In this document: one piece after another, positions 1 through 8,038 of the stretch
Numbering within the stretch: the stretch's first letter is position 1
Layout: every line of letters starts with the position of its first letter
The notes under the pieces: generated by a model
The model's input: the letters and a program-made list of their open reading frames with translations, nothing else
What the model was told of the DNA's origin: nothing
The model's database searches: none
Program-made: the position numbers and the translations under genes
Source: Treponema sp.
GTDB lineage: Bacteria > Spirochaetota > Spirochaetia > Treponematales > Treponemataceae
NCBI RefSeq assembly: GCF_052169735.1
Contig: NZ_JBQNBW010000004.1
Span: 548-64,547 of the forward strand
Direction: 5' to 3'
DNA: 64,000 nucleotides

Positions 1-1506
1 GTGCATATCAACTATAATACGCTCTACACCGCGACGTTCAAAGAATGTAAAGAACTGCGTGTGAATATTGCAGACCGGCTCAAGGCGCTGCCGCTTGCGT
101 ATTTTTCCAAACACGATGTTTCCGACTTATCGCAAACGGTGATGACCGATGTCGCTACAATCGAGCATGCGCTCAGCCACGCAATTCCGCAAACAATCGG
201 TCTTGTGTTCTATTTAATTATAATCGGCGCAATGATGATTACTGCGCATCCGGGATTAGGCTTATGCGTATTTGTTCCGATTATTATCAGCTTTATTCTA
301 TTGATCCTGTCGAAAAAAATTCAGATACGGGAGACAACGCGCGACTTTCATAAACAACGTGAGCGAACGGAATTTTTTCAAGAAGCGATAGAACTGCAAC
401 AGGAAATTAAAAGCTATGGTCTGACGGAAGACACGGCGGGAAAACTGAACCGCAATGTCGATGAAGCGGAAAAATTGCACTTAACTGTGGAAGCACATCA
501 AGCGATCCCGCTTAACATCGCACTGCTGTTTTTAAAGTTTTCTATCGGCATTACCGTATTTTTCGGACTAAAAATGTATCTGGCTGGCACGGCGCCGCTT
601 TTGTATCTTATCGGCTATATTATTGCGGCTTCCCGTGTTGTGGATGCGGTTGCAGGTGTTGAAGCAAACCTTGCAGAGATGATGTATATTGACGCACGGG
701 TCAAGCGCATAAACGAGCTGCGCGAAACAAAAACGCAGGAAGGAGAACCTGCTTCTTTGCAGCATTACGGTATTCAATTTAAAGATGTTGAGTTTTCGTA
801 TAACGATGGACAAAAGATTATCGACGGTATTTCGTTTACGGCGGAACAAAATAAAGTTACCGCACTTGTCGGTCCGTCAGGCTGCGGAAAAACAACCGTA
901 CTCCGGCTTGCGTCCCGTCTCTATGATTACGGCAAGGGACAAATCCTCATCGACGGCAAAGACATTGCAACGATTGATACCGATAGCCTTTTCAATAAAA
1001 TTTCGATTGTCTTTCAGGATGTCGGGCTTTTTAATACCTCGATTATGGAAAATATCCGCGTCGGAAATAAAAATGCCAGCGATGATGAGGTAAAAGAAGC
1101 TGCCCGTCTTGCCAACTGCGCCGAGTTTATCGAAGCGCTGCCGGACGGCTACAATACGGTCATCGGCGAAAACGGCAGCAGGCTTTCCGGCGGAGAGCGT
1201 CAGCGTCTTTCCATTGCGCGCGCTCTTTTGAAAAACGCACCGATTATCATCCTTGACGAAATCAGCGCCTCGCTCGATGTGGAAAACGAAATGAAAATAC
1301 AGGAGAGTCTTAACACCCTCATCAAAGGTAAAACGGTGATTATCATTTCGCACAGATTAAAGTCAATCGAGAACGCCGATAAAATCATCGTAATGAATCA
1401 GGGCAAAGTTGATGCGGAAGGTACGCACGCAGAGCTGTTGCAAAAATCAGCGCTGTATCGGAGTATGATTGAGAAGTCGGGGTTGACTGAAAGTTATACC
1501 TATTAA
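1..1506 (+). CDS. ABC exporter with fused transmembrane and ATP-binding domains; 5' end cut by the window edge
   Basis: Walker A GPSGCGKTT, ABC signature LSGGERQRLSIARA and Walker B IIILDE in the C-terminal half. The N-terminal half is hydrophobic. The ORF is open to position 1. Confidence 0.9.
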   Translation: MHINYNTLYTATFKECKELRVNIADRLKALPLAYFSKHDVSDLSQTVMTDVATIEHALSHAIPQTIGLVFYLIIIGAMMITAHPGLGLCVFVPIIISFILLILSKKIQIRETTRDFHKQRERTEFFQEAIELQQEIKSYGLTEDTAGKLNRNVDEAEKLHLTVEAHQAIPLNIALLFLKFSIGITVFFGLKMYLAGTAPLLYLIGYIIAASRVVDAVAGVEANLAEMMYIDARVKRINELRETKTQEGEPASLQHYGIQFKDVEFSYNDGQKIIDGISFTAEQNKVTALVGPSGCGKTTVLRLASRLYDYGKGQILIDGKDIATIDTDSLFNKISIVFQDVGLFNTSIMENIRVGNKNASDDEVKEAARLANCAEFIEALPDGYNTVIGENGSRLSGGERQRLSIARALLKNAPIIILDEISASLDVENEMKIQESLNTLIKGKTVIIISHRLKSIENADKIIVMNQGKVDAEGTHAELLQKSALYRSMIEKSGLTESYTY

Positions 1507-1632
1507 AAAGTGCAGGTAAAAGGAGCAGGAGATCATATATATAAAAAAATAACCAACCCTGACGTAGGGCGTTGCCGATAAACGGCGGGTATCAGGGTAT
1601 TAAATCCACCGCTCGAATAAACGATAGCTAAA

Positions 1633-1674
1633 ATCAACAACCCCGACGCTCGCACTCGCGTCGGGGTTGTTGAT
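1633..1674. terminator. Perfect hairpin between convergent genes; candidate bidirectional terminator
   Basis: ATCAACAACCCCGACGC / GCGTCGGGGTTGTTGAT forms a 17-bp stem with an 8-nt loop. It lies between the stop of the ABC gene and the stop of the minus-strand lipoprotein gene. Confidence 0.55.
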
Positions 1675-2363
1675 TAGTTTTCAGCGACCGAGGTTGCACG
1701 TAAGGCAGATATTTTCACTAATTCGTTAATACGGGAAAGAGCTTCTTTTTCCTGTTCATTTTTGGCGGAAATCTTGCCTAATGCTGTATCAATTTGCTCT
1801 TGGAAATTGTCTTTATCGATTGTGTACAAAACCACGTATTCAAATTCGGTTTTACCGGAAGACTGCTGCATTTTAACCCAAAATTCACGGCTTTTTTCAA
1901 ATCCGCTAATTTTATTTGAAGAGAAAATACCGATTGCCTGCTCCGCTATTTTGACGGTTGCTGCATCATCTTTGTTTCCCTTGATTGCTGTTCCCAATTC
2001 GCTTGTTACATTCTGTGTAATACTGCGCGAAAGAGTATCTGCTGCATCAGCAGCTGCCCACGATTTGAGTAAATCAACGTCTTGTCCGCGAGCTGACGCA
2101 AACTTGATGTATTTTGAGCTGAACTCGCTCATCTTTTGGATTTTATCAACCGCATCACCCTGCAAAATAATCCGCGCCCATTCGGGAATTTCTGTTCCAT
2201 ATGCCGCACCTTGCCAGTCAACGACCTGAGGACGCGGTGCCATGGGCGCTGCCTGAGCACCGGATGTTGTAGTGCAGCTCGAAACTAAAAGCGCACTTCC
2301 TGCCAAAACCATAAAAACCGCACATATAAGTGCATTCATTGTCTTTTTCATTGTTTCCTCCAT
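1674..2363 (-). CDS. Putative lipoprotein of unknown function
   Basis: N-terminal signal peptide with lipobox LLVSSC. No catalytic motifs recognised. Weak LPP20-like pattern. The real start is possibly the MKKTMNAL methionine. Confidence 0.7.
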   Translation of the reverse strand: MEETMKKTMNALICAVFMVLAGSALLVSSCTTTSGAQAAPMAPRPQVVDWQGAAYGTEIPEWARIILQGDAVDKIQKMSEFSSKYIKFASARGQDVDLLKSWAAADAADTLSRSITQNVTSELGTAIKGNKDDAATVKIAEQAIGIFSSNKISGFEKSREFWVKMQQSSGKTEFEYVVLYTIDKDNFQEQIDTALGKISAKNEQEKEALSRINELVKISALRATSVAEN

Positions 2364-2501
2364 ATAAAAAGAGTATTTTGATAGTATTTAGCACCCTAAA
2401 ACCGATTCGCAGTTTACTAAGCGGACAAGGCAATGACTTTCGTGCCAGAACAAGCCGCTTAGCTTACACTGTTTAGGTGTTTCCTTTAGAGTTAATGTAC
2501 G

Positions 2502-3413
2502 TTAATCTAATGACAAGGAATATCCAAGAGAGACTGCAGTCTTACCGTTTTCAAGTGGTGCAACTGCAAAATTCAACCCGTTGAGAATATCTGCAGCCCC
2601 CATCGATTGGTTTTTATTCCGCTTTACATAATATTTAGGACGTACAAACCCGTAAATAATTCTTGCTGCACCTGAAATACATCCGAGACTCAGAAAAGCA
2701 AGTCCTGCATCACTACCACCGCTAGACAGATCAGCTATACCGCCAATAAACATACCAAGGTTTGCCGCATGCCATGCGGTAAGAATAGCACCATCTACAT
2801 AATTCCCTGCAATATACGCACCCGTTCCAAAGAGCAGATTGCCGAATCCTAATCCCGCAAGCTGCCCGCCGTGATAGCGATCCGCCCGCAGTACTTTTTT
2901 GCTGCCCTTCTTGGCTCCTGCCGATAAGAGCAAAACAACCGTCTCACTGGCATCAACTTTTGCACGATAAATGTCTTCTACTGCTGCCGTGGTAACGTTC
3001 AGTGCATGAATAACGAGCAAATAGGACTCTCCGAATGGTTTTAAGTTCCCGCGGATAACCGTCTGAGCCCCCGCCATTGCACCGATCTGCTGAATGGACT
3101 CATCGCCGACTTCACCCGAAAGCTGGAAATTCATTTCCTTTTTAATTGCAGCAAGGTTAGCACGGTCTGCAACCTTGAGCTTTCTCAATCGTACAAAGTT
3201 GACTGTCAGTTCATCCAGCATAAAGTCGCTCATATCTTCCGTGTCGGAAGAAATACCGATAATCGCTATCGTGCTGCCGGTCTTGATTGTTTTTGAAAAC
3301 TGCTCCGCCGTTTCTGCCAAAGCAGCCTCAATTTCAATGGCAAAAGCCGCTGCATGAACCGTTAGCACCGCTACCATAATGCCAAGGATTTTTTTCATTC
3401 CTCTCCTCCTCAT
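2502..3413 (-). CDS. Exported or membrane protein with a CsgG/LpoB/FlgO-like N-terminal domain and a glycine-rich hydrophobic C-terminus
   Basis: Signal peptide. The segment TIAIIGISS...VADRANLAAIKKEMNFQLSGEV...IGAMAGAQTVIRGNL...YLLVIHALNVTTAAV matches the pattern I recall for CsgG/LpoB-type domains. The C-terminus contains Gly-rich TM-like segments. Confidence 0.55.
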   Translation of the reverse strand: MRRRGMKKILGIMVAVLTVHAAAFAIEIEAALAETAEQFSKTIKTGSTIAIIGISSDTEDMSDFMLDELTVNFVRLRKLKVADRANLAAIKKEMNFQLSGEVGDESIQQIGAMAGAQTVIRGNLKPFGESYLLVIHALNVTTAAVEDIYRAKVDASETVVLLLSAGAKKGSKKVLRADRYHGGQLAGLGFGNLLFGTGAYIAGNYVDGAILTAWHAANLGMFIGGIADLSSGGSDAGLAFLSLGCISGAARIIYGFVRPKYYVKRNKNQSMGAADILNGLNFAVAPLENGKTAVSLGYSLSLD

Positions 3414-3459
3414 ATTTTAGTATTTTCCGGCTGCAAAACATTTCCACAGCCGTATTACA

Positions 3460-4432
3460 CTATTTAAAGACATCCATAAAGTTGGCGCGCAAATCTTTAC
3501 CGATTTCGGTGTATGCCTTTCTGACCGCACTATCAAAATCGCGGTGTCCCCATTTCTTATAGCGGCGGGAATAAGAATACAGAGAATCACCGTGCCGATT
3601 GAGGATTTTCAGCACCAGATTCGGCTGGACAAACACGCCCGCATCATTTTCCGATCGCTCCAGCGTAATCTTGCCGGAGATGAGCAGCCCTGTGTTGCCT
3701 CCATAAATAAAGCCTTCATTTTCGAGAATTTCTTGTAAGACTGCAGCAATGGCGCCGTTCTCATCGTTTTCAATCCTTATTCCAAAAGATAAGCGCGGTT
3801 TAATTGTACGCATTCCCGTAATGCATTCATTTTCGATTGCGTTAATTTCTGCCTGATAGATTTTACTTTTTTCTGCGTTAAGAACGGTGAGTGTGTCTCG
3901 TGTTTTTTGTAATTGTCCTAGGTATTCTTTGAGGTGGGAAAAACCGGTAAAAGCGGAAATAGAAATACCTGCATTCTTACAGTCTCTCAATGTGTTTTTT
4001 GCTTTTTGAATACCACTATCCAGCTCTACCGTGCAGCGTTTTGCAGCATCAGCTTTATTGATGTAGGCGCAAACATGCCATTCCCCCGCGCGGTCGCAAA
4101 AAGCTTCGGAAAAACTGAGAAGAGGTAAGTCTGTCTCGGATTCGATTATGAGAGAGCTTGAAGCGGAACGGGATTTTTCGATCGAAGCAGATTCGGTAAT
4201 AGTGCTTGAAACTTCACGGTTGATGGTTATGGTAGAATTAAAGTAGAGTGCGAGCTGCGTAACGGCATCTTCTTTTGCCTGTGTCTCGGATGCACCTGAA
4301 CCGAGCGCACTTATGAATAGCGTATCAGGATATTTTACACTTCTATGAGAGAGCCACAGAGGAGCTTCTTGGGCATACGCAGAAGCAGTAAAGTAAAGTA
4401 AAGTAAAGTAAAGTAAAGTTGCGGTGTTTCAT
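3460..4432 (-). pseudogene. Exported protein gene (possibly LPP20-like), out of frame within a pentanucleotide repeat as assembled
   Basis: ATG at 4432 gives MKHRNFTLLYFTLLY, then a stop at 4345-4343. A second frame is open from 4428 to 3460 with no start codon before 3990. A change of +1 or -2 repeat units fuses the two frames into a protein with a good signal peptide. Confidence 0.6.
4387..4419 (-). repeat. Pentanucleotide microsatellite: (AGTAA)6+AGT on plus, (TTACT)n on the coding strand
   Basis: Counted directly: six full AGTAA units followed by AGT. Confidence 0.95.
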
Positions 4433-4524
4433 AGCTATAACATATAAAGATTGTAAGATTGTCTAGAAACCAATCCTATCTACTGTTTAGTATCTCAAAT
4501 CAAAACAGTTTTGTCAAGTATCGT

Positions 4525-4623
4525 CCTTAGAATACAACAGTTGTATAAAGTATGAACTTTGGAGACTGTTGCATTGGTGTGCGATAGCGCACATACAATA
4601 AATGAGGTTTGCGGTACGCAAAC
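4525..4623 (-). promoter_or_regulatory. Leader-like structured element, copy C, upstream of the repeat-containing gene
   Basis: Minus-strand sense: hairpin GTTTGCG-TAC-CGCAAAC, hairpin TGTGCG-CTAT-CGCACA, stem CAACAG...CTGTTG, then TTCTAAGGA. Homologous to the copies at 22007-22254 and 36345-36440. Confidence 0.5.
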
Positions 4624-4723
4624 TTGCCGTTCAGGAATATATAGGATGGATATTCGTGGGCGCGGATGTCCATGGTATTAATCAGAAGTACGTTTGAACA
4701 ACAAACGTACCACCCGATAAGCA

Positions 4724-6280
4724 CTACGCCTGCGCAGTGCTCCCAAATACTAACACCCCAAGCCAGCAAATCAATCCGGCGAGCAGTGCATACAGAATGA
4801 AATACTTAAATACCGACGCTAAAATCTTACTTTCCGATCCGGTTAAATTGGTTGCGCCTGCTCCGATGGCGATATTCTGCGGACATACCATCTTACCGAT
4901 CCCTGCTCCCATCACATTCGCTGCAGTAATCCAATACGGATTGAGCTGCAAAGCCGTTGCTGTTTCCAATTGCAAATTACCGAATAGCACACAGGTTGAC
5001 GTGCCTGAACCGGTTATAAAAGCTCCTAACACCCCGATCAGCGGAGCGACAAAAGGATAAACCGGACCGGCTCCGGCAACCGCTGCAATAGCAATATCGG
5101 AAATCATACCGCTATAGATCATAATCTTTGCAGTTGCTATAACAGCGCATATCGTAAAAACTGCTGTCCAGTATTTTTTAAGTGTTGCTATAAAAACACG
5201 CATCGTATCACTCAACCGTGCCTTTTGAATCAAACTGCCGCAGACTGCTGCAATAAAGATCATAATCCCCGGCGTATTTATCCAACTAAATGTAAGCGGT
5301 TTGCCGCCCGTGCCTGTGTACACCATAACGGAAGTTTTTATGTCTTTGATTGCATTATACAGCGGAGGGAAAAGCGGAGAGGTAGACAGCAGCAGTATAA
5401 AAATCAATATGAACGGAGCCCATGCCTGCAGCCCTTCTGCAAAGCCGATGTGAGCTGTTTCCGTCTCTGTCTGCACCGGCTGCGCTGCCGACTTAGTGAA
5501 AAAAGCATTGCGTATTTTGACAGCGATAATAATACAAAGCATTGCACACATCGAGCCGACAATATTCGGCAATTCAGGTCCCAAAAATCGTGCAAATAAA
5601 AGACTCGGTATGATAAAGGACAAAGACGCAATCAATGTAGTCCCCAGCACCCCTTTCAGCGCTTTTATCCCGCCGCCGCAGATCATTACTGCAAGGAATG
5701 GAGAAATAAAGGTATGAAGCACTTGTATGAAAGCAGCGGTCGAGGCAAGCGGTAAAAGCTCCAACCCGGTAATAGATGCCAATGTAGCAGTAGGTACCCC
5801 CACGGAACCGAATGCAGTCGGTGTTGTATTCATTACCAGACAGGCAAGTACTGCGGACACAGGATCAAGACCAATACCGGCAAGCATAGATGCAGGAATT
5901 GCAACAGCAGTTCCGAACCCAGCCATTCCTTCCATAAAATTGCCGAATCCCCACCCGATAATCAGCAGCAATATTCTTTGATCATTGGAAATAGTACCGA
6001 GCATTGTCTTAATGCGCTCCATAGCCCCGGTTGCTACACTCAGATTGTAGGTAAACAATGCGGCAATAATGACCAAGCAAATCGGCCATAGCGCATTCAG
6101 TATGCCTTCCAGCGCAGCTGATGCAACATGGAGTACCGGCAGCTTCCAATACAATCCTGCTAAAGCAGCAGTCAGGAGCAAGGCAATGCCGCATGCCGTA
6201 TAACTCGGCATTTTAAGTTTACCTAAGGCAAGAATAAGCCACAAAATAGGCAGCAGTGCAAGTATAAAGTGTACCAACAT
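4724..6280 (-). CDS. lctP: L-lactate/glycolate permease (LctP family)
   Basis: 518-aa polytopic membrane protein. The N-terminus (LPILWLILALGKLKMP) and overall pattern resemble the LctP family. AAGGAG lies upstream of the ATG. Confidence 0.8.
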   Translation of the reverse strand: MLVHFILALLPILWLILALGKLKMPSYTACGIALLLTAALAGLYWKLPVLHVASAALEGILNALWPICLVIIAALFTYNLSVATGAMERIKTMLGTISNDQRILLLIIGWGFGNFMEGMAGFGTAVAIPASMLAGIGLDPVSAVLACLVMNTTPTAFGSVGVPTATLASITGLELLPLASTAAFIQVLHTFISPFLAVMICGGGIKALKGVLGTTLIASLSFIIPSLLFARFLGPELPNIVGSMCAMLCIIIAVKIRNAFFTKSAAQPVQTETETAHIGFAEGLQAWAPFILIFILLLSTSPLFPPLYNAIKDIKTSVMVYTGTGGKPLTFSWINTPGIMIFIAAVCGSLIQKARLSDTMRVFIATLKKYWTAVFTICAVIATAKIMIYSGMISDIAIAAVAGAGPVYPFVAPLIGVLGAFITGSGTSTCVLFGNLQLETATALQLNPYWITAANVMGAGIGKMVCPQNIAIGAGATNLTGSESKILASVFKYFILYALLAGLICWLGVLVFGSTAQA

Positions 6281-7170: not shown

Positions 7171-8038
7171 AGCGTTTTGTTACGGCACGGCTTACCAGCA
7201 AGGCAATAACAGTAAAGATGATAATGATAACAGCAAGCGCGCTACCGTAACCATAGTTTTGAAACACAAAGGTTGTATTGTACATATACACAGCGATAAC
7301 CTCTGTAAAATGCGCAGGACCGCCGCCGGTCATTGAATACACAAGATCAAAACTCTTAAAACTGCCGGAAACTGCAAGAATGGTATTGATAAAAATCACG
7401 TTTGCAAGCATCGGCGCAATAAGGCGGATAAAAATTGTTCCCTCCCGCGCTCCTTCCAGTTGAGCAGCCTCTATTACACTGTAGGGTATCCGCTGTAAAT
7501 TTGCTAAAAAGATGACCATATAAAGACTGGTATGCTGCCACAACAGCACAAAAAGGATAGGCGCAATCGCAAAATACTTATCCTCAAATATTGTCATAAT
7601 ATAATCAGGATTATCGGTTAACTCACGTACAATAGTAGGAACTACACCGACAGGAGAAAAAATCCGGTTCCATAGCTGCGCTACAATAACGGAAGAAATC
7701 GTAATGGGAAGGAAAATCAGTACTTCAAAAAAATTAGCATGTTTGACCATTTTGCGGTACAGCATATAAGCAAGAAGAAGTCCGAGCGGAATTTGTCCCA
7801 ATACCGAAATCAATACAATGAGGATATTATTCCGTAAGCCGATATAGAATACCGGATCGGTGAACATTCTGATATAGTTTCCCAGTCCGATAAATTCCAT
7901 CTTTCCATATCCTTTCCATTTCGTCAGGCTTAAATAAAAGCTGAACAGCACGGGAAAAACAATGATTCCAATGTAAATGAAAAAAGCAGGCAAGATAAAA
8001 GAAAGATAGCTCATCCGTTTTTGCCGTAAATAAGTCAT
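7160..8038 (-). CDS. Carbohydrate ABC transporter permease (MalF-like)
   Basis: EAA loop EAAQLEGAREGTIFIRLIAPML. Overlaps the downstream permease gene by 11 nt. Confidence 0.9.
   Translation of the reverse strand: MTYLRQKRMSYLSFILPAFFIYIGIIVFPVLFSFYLSLTKWKGYGKMEFIGLGNYIRMFTDPVFYIGLRNNILIVLISVLGQIPLGLLLAYMLYRKMVKHANFFEVLIFLPITISSVIVAQLWNRIFSPVGVVPTIVRELTDNPDYIMTIFEDKYFAIAPILFVLLWQHTSLYMVIFLANLQRIPYSVIEAAQLEGAREGTIFIRLIAPMLANVIFINTILAVSGSFKSFDLVYSMTGGGPAHFTEVIAVYMYNTTFVFQNYGYGSALAVIIIIFTVIALLVSRAVTKRFDY

Follow-up and report, generated by a model that had tools for sequence, protein, structure and literature searches.

Whether a short tandem repeat that puts a gene out of frame marks a decayed gene or a gene that is switched on and off is the question raised by a locus on contig NZ_JBQNBW010000004.1 of Treponema sp., of which a stretch of 64 kb was analyzed (64,000 nucleotides; hereafter the window, to whose positions all coordinates refer). 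The gene in question, here called the switch gene, lies at 4432-3460 on the minus strand, and a perfect pentanucleotide repeat, (TTTAC)6, stands between its start codon and the long frame that encodes the mature protein. A preliminary description of the window had proposed a slipped-strand contingency switch of the type known from Neisseria opa genes. This proposal is supported by comparison: the unit count is polymorphic, sister lineages hold ON and OFF alleles, and the mature frame is under purifying selection. We conclude that the locus is very probably a translational contingency locus built on a simple sequence repeat (SSR), in which slipped-strand changes at the TTTAC tract would join or part the ATG and the mature frame and so produce heritable, reversible ON and OFF states.

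Read along the minus strand, the ATG at 4432 is followed by the codons AAA CAC CGC AAC, six perfect TTTAC units (4417-4388), tgcttctgcgtatgcc and then CAAGAAGCT. On the plus strand, Tandem Repeats Finder (TRF) reports the same tract as 6.6 copies of AGTAA with 100% matches (4387-4419), which together with direct reading of the sequence confirmed the earlier placement of an AGTAA repeat right after MKHRN. The perfect tract begins directly after codon 5, and its unit length is not a multiple of 3. The elements of the switch are as follows.

4418-4432, minus strand: start codon ATG (4432-4430) and basic n-region M-K-H-R-N; the ATG and four codons are kept in all TTTAC-type orthologs.
4388-4417, minus strand: (TTTAC)6, a slippage-prone tract encoding the hydrophobic core of the predicted signal peptide (FTLLYFTLLY...), found by TRF and polymorphic in count in the species and its relatives.
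4372-4387, minus strand: the 16 nt after the repeat, tgcttctgcgtatgcc, giving (T)ASAYA in the mature frame; predicted c-region with an AxA signal-peptidase I site at a homologous cleavage position.
4343-4345, minus strand: premature TAG of the ATG frame at six units, ending the 29-aa OFF product (open reading frame analysis).
3460-4371, minus strand: mature frame of 303 codons (QEAPLWLSH...MDVFK) plus stop, encoding a putative HP1454-like three-domain envelope protein; intact in all repeat-bearing orthologs.

With n denoting the number of units, the assembled n = 6 lets the ATG frame run into the TAG at 4345-4343, yielding a 29-aa product (open reading frame, ORF, 4343-4432). The long frame is closed by a TGA that overlaps the ATG and is then open from 4428 to the stop at 3460; its earliest ATG, GTG or TTG is the TTG at 3990, matching an ORF of 3460-3990, and the 303 codons of the mature frame occupy 4371-3463. 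When unit numbers were simulated, the ATG and the mature frame were fused at n = 1, 4, 7 and 10. The two frames, their fusion at four or seven units and the OFF state of the gene as assembled, all read from the sequence beforehand, were thus borne out, n = 6 being out of frame. Because 5 is not a multiple of 3, every gain or loss of a unit shifts the register.

The tract has almost no counterpart in its surroundings. Among microsatellites of at least 3 units and at least 12 nt, the 64 kb hold (TTTAC)6 and one (TTC)4 and no others, and in 215 kb of fetched loci plus the window, qualifying SSRs occur only at the switch site, except for one T11 run. By a back-of-envelope estimate, 28 consecutive period-5 matches would arise by chance with a probability of about 2e-17 per position.

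The signal peptide was evaluated next to those of repeat-free orthologs. In the preliminary description it had been called a textbook example, and this holds for its two ends: the window n-region, MKHRN, is basic, and an AxA site (AYA|QE) is present at a cleavage position homologous to that of the repeat-free orthologs (...ALAA|EEPPLW and ...PAVA|QDAPLW). The middle part fits the description less well, since the repeat-coded core, FTLLYFTLLYFT, reaches a best 8-residue Kyte-Doolittle mean of only 1.5-1.9, compared with 2.9-3.5 in the repeat-free orthologs. In-frame leaders are 13, 17 or 18 aa long, and 44, 52 or 60 aa in a clade with an 8-nt repeat unit (8-mer clade); the leader at n = 1, although in frame, is 12 aa long and probably too short for export.

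Several observations support the ATG at 4432 as the start. Across orthologs, the four codons after the ATG encode basic stretches (KHRN, KKRN, QKRR, KKRR, QKRN), whereas the other frame over the same bases reads ETPQ, EKAQ or AKTP; because the basic residues are kept in the ATG frame only, this ATG is supported as the true start. Two other candidates were rejected. The internal TTG at 3990, the start implied by gene callers, was ruled out by the 126 codons upstream of it, whose ratio of nonsynonymous to synonymous substitution rates (dN/dS) is 0.08-0.21, and the upstream ATGs of P0001 and P0002 were ruled out by their position at or before the predicted -35 and -10 boxes. That orthologs might start elsewhere had been named as a possible objection; they do not, purifying selection acting on the mature frame over its whole length, the 126 codons before the TTG included.

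When the fused product was used as a protein query, 19 clusters were returned, all of them from Treponema genomes or host-associated metagenomes. DNA was fetched from one genome per species and the 5′ ends were read, a metagenome scan added further loci, and the counts of relatives were compared within single clusters of at least 90% identity with identical flanks. Four types of called N-terminus were found in the clusters: MKK(R/L)-(LYFT)n in frame; proteins called from spurious upstream starts, with the repeat traversed in a different frame; a large group of 176-224-aa proteins called only from internal Met codons; and, in one clade, an N-terminus with an 8-aa period.

Within the species of the window, two further loci (L018 and L019) carry exactly its C-terminal 176 residues. 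L018 is 99.3% identical to the window and has n = 6; L019, from a different sample, is 99.2% identical over 3.2 kb and has n = 5, the missing unit being the sole gap in the alignment. Genome representatives of other species carry two (L001 and L015), three (L003), six (L002) or eight (L004) TTTAC units, and the metagenome scan added tracts of 6 and 9 units (L038, L039). Variation is also extensive within close lineages: counts of 9, 2, 10, 8, 8, 6, 8, 8, 3, 6 and 4 were read in a lineage that includes a human oral metagenome contig; 2, 3, 5, 6 and 9 in the L002-type lineage, with 11 also found by protein; and 5, 3, 4 and 3 in the P0012 lineage, with 2 also found by protein. The comparison of unit counts among related strains, proposed at the outset, thus gave 6, 6 and 5 in the species and, in close relatives whose flanks are identical, an overall range from 2 to 11, and a tract fixed at six units in all genomes was not what we found. 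Some alleles were recovered from several samples: n = 2 turned up five times, n = 5 four times and n = 4 of the 8-mer seven times.

Alleles in frame from the conserved ATG were found in L030 (n = 4), P0051, L048, P0104, P0067, P0007, P0071 and others, with L048 (n = 5) and P0104 being in frame in their own register. They stand beside OFF sister alleles: L030 is ON whereas L020-L029 are OFF, and L048 is ON whereas L050-L052 are OFF. In the 8-mer clade, n = 4, 7 and 10 give ON products of 350, 358 and 366 aa, P0067 occurs on 7 contigs, and about half of the cluster is ON. The repeat-bearing clusters consist of truncated calls and stepped lengths, whereas the repeat-free cluster 9, which serves as a control, hardly departs from a length of 327 aa. 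In L020-L029, the junction behind the repeat exists as two haplotypes that differ by one T in the last unit (…TTTAC-TTAC-CCTC and …TTTAC-CCTC). Through this single T, the unit counts that give ON change from n = 1 mod 3 to n = 0 mod 3, which means that the switch can be reset by a point indel.

The mature frame is uninterrupted over 303-308 codons in every repeat-bearing locus, including the genome representatives, all of which are out of frame at the tract. Pairwise dN/dS in this frame is 0.07-0.25, and the 0.08-0.21 of the 126 codons upstream of the internal TTG is as low as the rest. Plus-strand ORFs at the locus are 64 aa or shorter, with no overlapping gene among them.

These results bear directly on two rival explanations. 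That the gene is a plain pseudogene, in which a repeat hot spot inactivated a gene that had lost its use and the differences in count are neutral leftovers, could be argued from the fact that the 11 state-blind loci and the three alleles of the window's species are without exception out of frame, and from a repeat-free ortholog (L017) that is truly broken within its ORF. Neutral decay is nonetheless hard to reconcile with a 303-308-codon frame that contains no stop in any repeat-bearing locus at synonymous divergences (dS) of up to about 1 or more, with a dN/dS of 0.07-0.25 that stays low upstream of the internal TTG, with the in-frame alleles of sister lineages, with the recurrence of different repeat types at one site and with the retained basic n-region after the ATG. 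On these comparisons the pseudogene explanation appears largely refuted by dN/dS and the ON alleles, and we regard it as very unlikely. An artefact of assembly or sequencing, with the true sequence in frame and the count differences arising as repeat-assembly errors, is more improbable still. Repeats do break assemblies, seven contigs stop at the tract, and short reads could give wrong counts for the long 8-mer arrays (up to 121 nt); however, the 30-nt tract is far below read length and below the k = 119-141 of many contigs, n = 6 is reproduced in the independent assembly L018, dozens of independent samples share identical flanks and differ by exact multiples of 5 nt, and identical alleles recur in several of them. 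The seven contigs that end in or at the tract (L005, L006, L009, L010, L040, L041, L042) suggest another cause: breaks at tracts of 30-50 nt, shorter than the assembly k-mers, may result from length heterogeneity within the sample. Partial protein calls (P0081-P0083) and contig 5′ ends also begin inside the repeat, or a few bases from it, far above chance.

A contingency switch leaves a group of observations less well accommodated, and these weigh against it. ON alleles are far rarer in the window's clade than the neutral one-third: the window's species shows only n = 6, 6 and 5, all OFF, with no ON allele among the three; none of 11 complete, state-blind, repeat-bearing loci is ON, for which the neutral expectation gives (2/3)^11, about 0.012, in a ratio that leaves out L020-L029, a P0039-derived sample biased towards OFF; and clusters 1 and 2, both fully listed, contain no ATG-frame allele. 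No two alleles of one lineage were found in one sample, the contigs all coming from different samples, and the metagenome loci are consensus sequences, blind to switching within a clone. To these are added the moderate Kyte-Doolittle hydrophobicity of the repeat-coded h-region and the lack of an evident Shine-Dalgarno sequence before the window ATG. Since the OFF alleles are divided between the two OFF registers, the scarcity is not explained by a mis-assigned start codon; together, these points suggest either that ON is counter-selected in the sampled hosts or that the ON logic is more complicated. The latter would amount to real variation read differently, with a second productive register, polarity as the main effect or a signal peptide tuned by length. 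Such a register could be opened in the L002-type lineage by a TTG that precedes the repeat by 31 nt: the n = 2 mod 3 alleles of this lineage are common and read MVYYRYEKTQ-LYFT... from this TTG, and no ATG-frame alleles were seen; the variable leader lengths of in-frame alleles and the tight linkage of three genes at the locus would fit the other two variants. The window's species, however, has no canonical +1-frame start that reaches the repeat, the upstream ATGs that gene callers chose for clusters 1 and 2 are placed no further downstream than the predicted -10 box, and the downstream genes carry their own ribosome-binding sites. Moreover, the n = 0 mod 3 class is the commonest although it is closed by the ATG-overlapping TGA, which means that true OFF alleles are frequent. 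We therefore consider a different ON/OFF logic improbable, if less so than decay of the gene.

Under the preferred explanation, a translational switch at the TTTAC tract, the gene at 4432-3460 would encode an exported envelope protein whose signal-peptide core is written in TTTAC units. Slipped-strand mispairing during replication would add or remove units and thereby shift the ATG against the 303-codon frame, giving ON at n = 4, 7 and 10, with the n = 6 allele of the window predicted to be OFF and to yield only the 29-aa peptide. The population would then be a heritable, reversible mix of producers and non-producers, and polarity may carry the effect to two co-transcribed downstream envelope genes. 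The usual selective agents of such loci are host antibody or phage.

The site has also been occupied by other repeats. Arrays of 8-mers were found in T. vincentii OMZ 806 (L007; TTACGCAC x 15) and in L008 (TTGCGTAC x 7), GCTTT x 5 was found in L011, and one lineage has poly-C at the same place (C7 in L044 and C9 in L042; L044 would be ON at C5 or C8). Five more distant orthologs (L012-L014, L016, L017) have ordinary, repeat-free, in-frame signal peptides. In a neighbor-joining tree of the mature proteins, TTTAC appears in three deep clades, the 8-mer, GCTTT and poly-C types are interspersed, and the repeat-free orthologs branch outside them. TTTAC may be old and have been replaced several times, or the repeats may have arisen independently; both readings of the tree would imply that a switch at the signal-peptide position is maintained by selection. 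The arrangement differs between types: in the TTTAC clades the repeat is the hydrophobic core, whereas in the 8-mer clade it lies in an extended n-region with a normal core, ALLCLVLCAPLYA, behind it.

A broader proposal, which we offer tentatively and hold at somewhat below even chances, is that the switch was repeatedly rebuilt at a single signal-peptide position, from at least four unrelated repeat types (TTTAC, GCTTT, the 8-mers TTACGCAC/TTGCGTAC and poly-C), by second-order selection for switchability in a previously unrecognized phase-variable envelope operon of host-associated treponemes. The cost would be a poorer signal peptide, and ON would be counter-selected in vivo as a dominant antibody target or phage receptor. 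If true, the locus would be a clear natural example of the convergent evolution of mutability and would open a new approach to how oral and digital-dermatitis-type treponemes evade immunity. The repeat-free orthologs and the at least four repeat solutions at the same codons form a natural experiment on the origin and cost of contingency loci, the cost here being a weaker hydrophobic core.

The 8-mer clade has further features of its own. Its ATG lies 65 nt upstream of the repeat, and a second TTGACA-17-ATAATT motif abuts the first 8-mer unit (about 3815-3845 in L007 and 3878-3908 in L008). This motif resembles the promoter of the TTTAC clades, and it may be an ancestral promoter that now serves as codons (RVLDK...). 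The L008 unit, TTGCGTAC, also gives in-frame TTG codons.

Several known systems share parts of this design. In Neisseria opa genes, a CTCTT repeat in the coding region of the leader peptide undergoes slipped-strand switching (PMC3960869; bioRxiv 10.1101/2020.09.16.300947). Both loci have a pentanucleotide coding repeat that follows a short basic n-region and encodes the hydrophobic core of the signal peptide, which is a predicted one here, with the count setting the frame of the mature protein; however, the unit is TTTAC here, the target is single-copy and heads a three-gene cluster whereas opa is a multigene family, and the target is modeled as alpha/beta domains and a helical bundle rather than as an Opa-type outer-membrane protein. 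The mature protein showed no homology to Opa, the homolog search returning Treponema-type proteins only. Genes such as Gardnerella nanH3, with poly-C next to the signal peptide, likewise have an SSR that parts the leader from the mature protein, truncated calls that lack the signal peptide and assemblies that break at the tract. Helicobacter pylori outer-membrane protein genes carry CT repeats at their 5′ ends. In the present family, the L042/L044 lineage uses poly-C, whereas most members use 5- or 8-nt units. Within the genus, T. pallidum has poly-G tracts near tpr genes, which are homopolymers and act mainly on transcription in the promoter region. These tracts, like the present locus, place envelope proteins under SSR-based ON/OFF control; here, in contrast, the repeat is heteropolymeric, coding and would act on the reading frame. 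T. pallidum is listed among the SSR-phase-variable species (PMC11868660). In the searchable literature, which leaves many subscription journals outside, we found no report of this locus or of coding-repeat phase variation in non-pallidum treponemes. The mechanism itself is textbook knowledge; the new part is the locus and the several repeat solutions at one site. It would extend treponeme phase variation beyond the homopolymers of T. pallidum to oral and commensal treponemes. The tract would also explain the 176-222-aa fragments or spuriously extended proteins reported by gene callers, and the assembly breaks there.

Neither the fused protein nor its mature part matched a Pfam or NCBIfam family (DUF6921, at an expectation value, E, of 0.099, was disregarded), and none of the 19 homolog clusters contains a Pfam domain. 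A sequence-profile search against the PDB gave only a weak coiled-region match to a chain-length determinant (E 0.007), judged spurious. An AlphaFold model built on an 18-sequence alignment (mean predicted local distance difference test score, pLDDT, 82) consists of an alpha/beta domain, a three-helix bundle and a second alpha/beta domain. Its top Foldseek match is HP1454 of H. pylori (4KZS), with E 1.5e-6, probability 1.00, 293 aligned columns and template modeling (TM) scores of 0.42/0.50, at about 10% sequence identity and a global root-mean-square deviation (rmsd) of 14.5 Å; single domains also match LptE, PelC and CsgG-type lipoprotein folds. HP1454 is alike in being a three-domain secreted envelope protein of the lpp20 (HP1456) operon, beside small lipoprotein genes, and unlike in its identity of only about 10%, the high rmsd and the lack of a Pfam or profile-level match. 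By this model, the mature protein is a structural analogue or remote relative of HP1454, and profile searches did not place it in that family. To our knowledge, phase variation of HP1454 has not been reported. HP1454 binds FlgP and FapH in two-hybrid and pull-down assays, with unclear significance (PMC11756786).

The switch gene is followed by two further genes of the cluster.

2502-3398, minus strand: gene 2, a predicted exported protein of 298 aa; it matches an LpoB-like domain weakly (PF13036, E 0.008, below cutoff), has a glycine-rich membrane segment at its C terminus and is preceded by its own Shine-Dalgarno sequence, GGAGGAG.
1674-2363, minus strand: gene 3, a predicted lipoprotein of 225-229 aa with lipobox LVSSC and no Pfam family.

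In all 17 genome loci the target gene is followed by the LpoB-like gene, which is duplicated in some of them; a match to the lipoprotein gene was obtained in 15, with none in L005 or L011. The target is thus probably an exported envelope protein that works with two downstream partners. The upstream neighbor of the cluster is not conserved: because upstream neighbors differ between lineages, the three-gene cluster moves as a unit. As an uncharacterized, conserved envelope cluster, it would be marked by the switch as being under fluctuating selection, which usually means surface exposure and immune or phage pressure, and the protein is a candidate antigen or receptor in host-associated treponemes.

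Several minor observations were made on the cluster and its relatives. The LpoB-like gene is present in two tandem copies in several lineages (seen among L003, L004, L005, L012, L014 and L016), and the 8-mer clade and some repeat-free genomes have the LpoB-like and lipoprotein genes in reverse order. The upstream neighbors recorded at L053 (1-298), L019 (1-383), L058 (1-215), L048 (194-1042) and L031 (1-1354) were a DDE transposase, a 1676-aa Flg_new-repeat protein beyond lctP, a formate-tetrahydrofolate ligase, a sigma-70 factor and an ABC-F ATPase. In L017, a metagenome-assembled genome of Candidatus Gallitreponema excrementavium, the ORF is broken after 152 codons and annotated as P0112 and P0113; this break, an ordinary frameshift or an assembly error, has no connection with the switch, and the rest of the listed cluster members have an intact protein of 327 aa.

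The switch gene is predicted to have its own promoter with a leader of about 50 nt.

4489-4517, minus strand: promoter-like TTGACA, 17-nt spacer and TG-GATACT (extended -10), a consensus match only (10/12 plus TG).

This is the best sigma-70-like site within 1500-4800, and a terminator-like hairpin follows the lactate-permease gene upstream. Equivalents of the form TTGACA-17-(TATACT/CATACT/TATAAT) lie upstream of orthologs; in the P0012 lineage the promoter is a clean TTGACA-17-TATAAT and a ribosome-binding site, GGGAG, is present. The predicted leader of the window contains a perfect 8-nt direct duplication, AAGATTGT x 2 on the plus strand (4447-4462), between the -10 box and the ATG. In L003, L004 and L015, a GC-rich hairpin with a T-run, such as aaaactgccgaaagccgtcggcagtttt in L003, is found about 40-70 nt upstream of the ATG; it is terminator- or attenuator-like, lies between promoter and start and is absent from the window leader.

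No Rfam family reached its gathering score anywhere in the window. Sub-threshold matches to the TD-1/TD-2 RNA motifs, which were described from Treponema denticola, occur at 4526-4635 (minus strand) in the window, at 2356-2465 in L018, at 7354-7459 (plus strand) in L003 and at 5562-5654 (minus strand) in L004, with TD-1 scores of 50.8-51.3 bits against a gathering score of 64.5 (E 6e-7 in a small search). In the window, the element is flanked by the lactate-permease gene and the switch-gene promoter; in L003 and L004 it is found ahead of the lipoprotein gene, and a role as part of the switch was rejected on this ground. Because its place differs in these two loci, the match looks like a dispersed intergenic element outside the switch.

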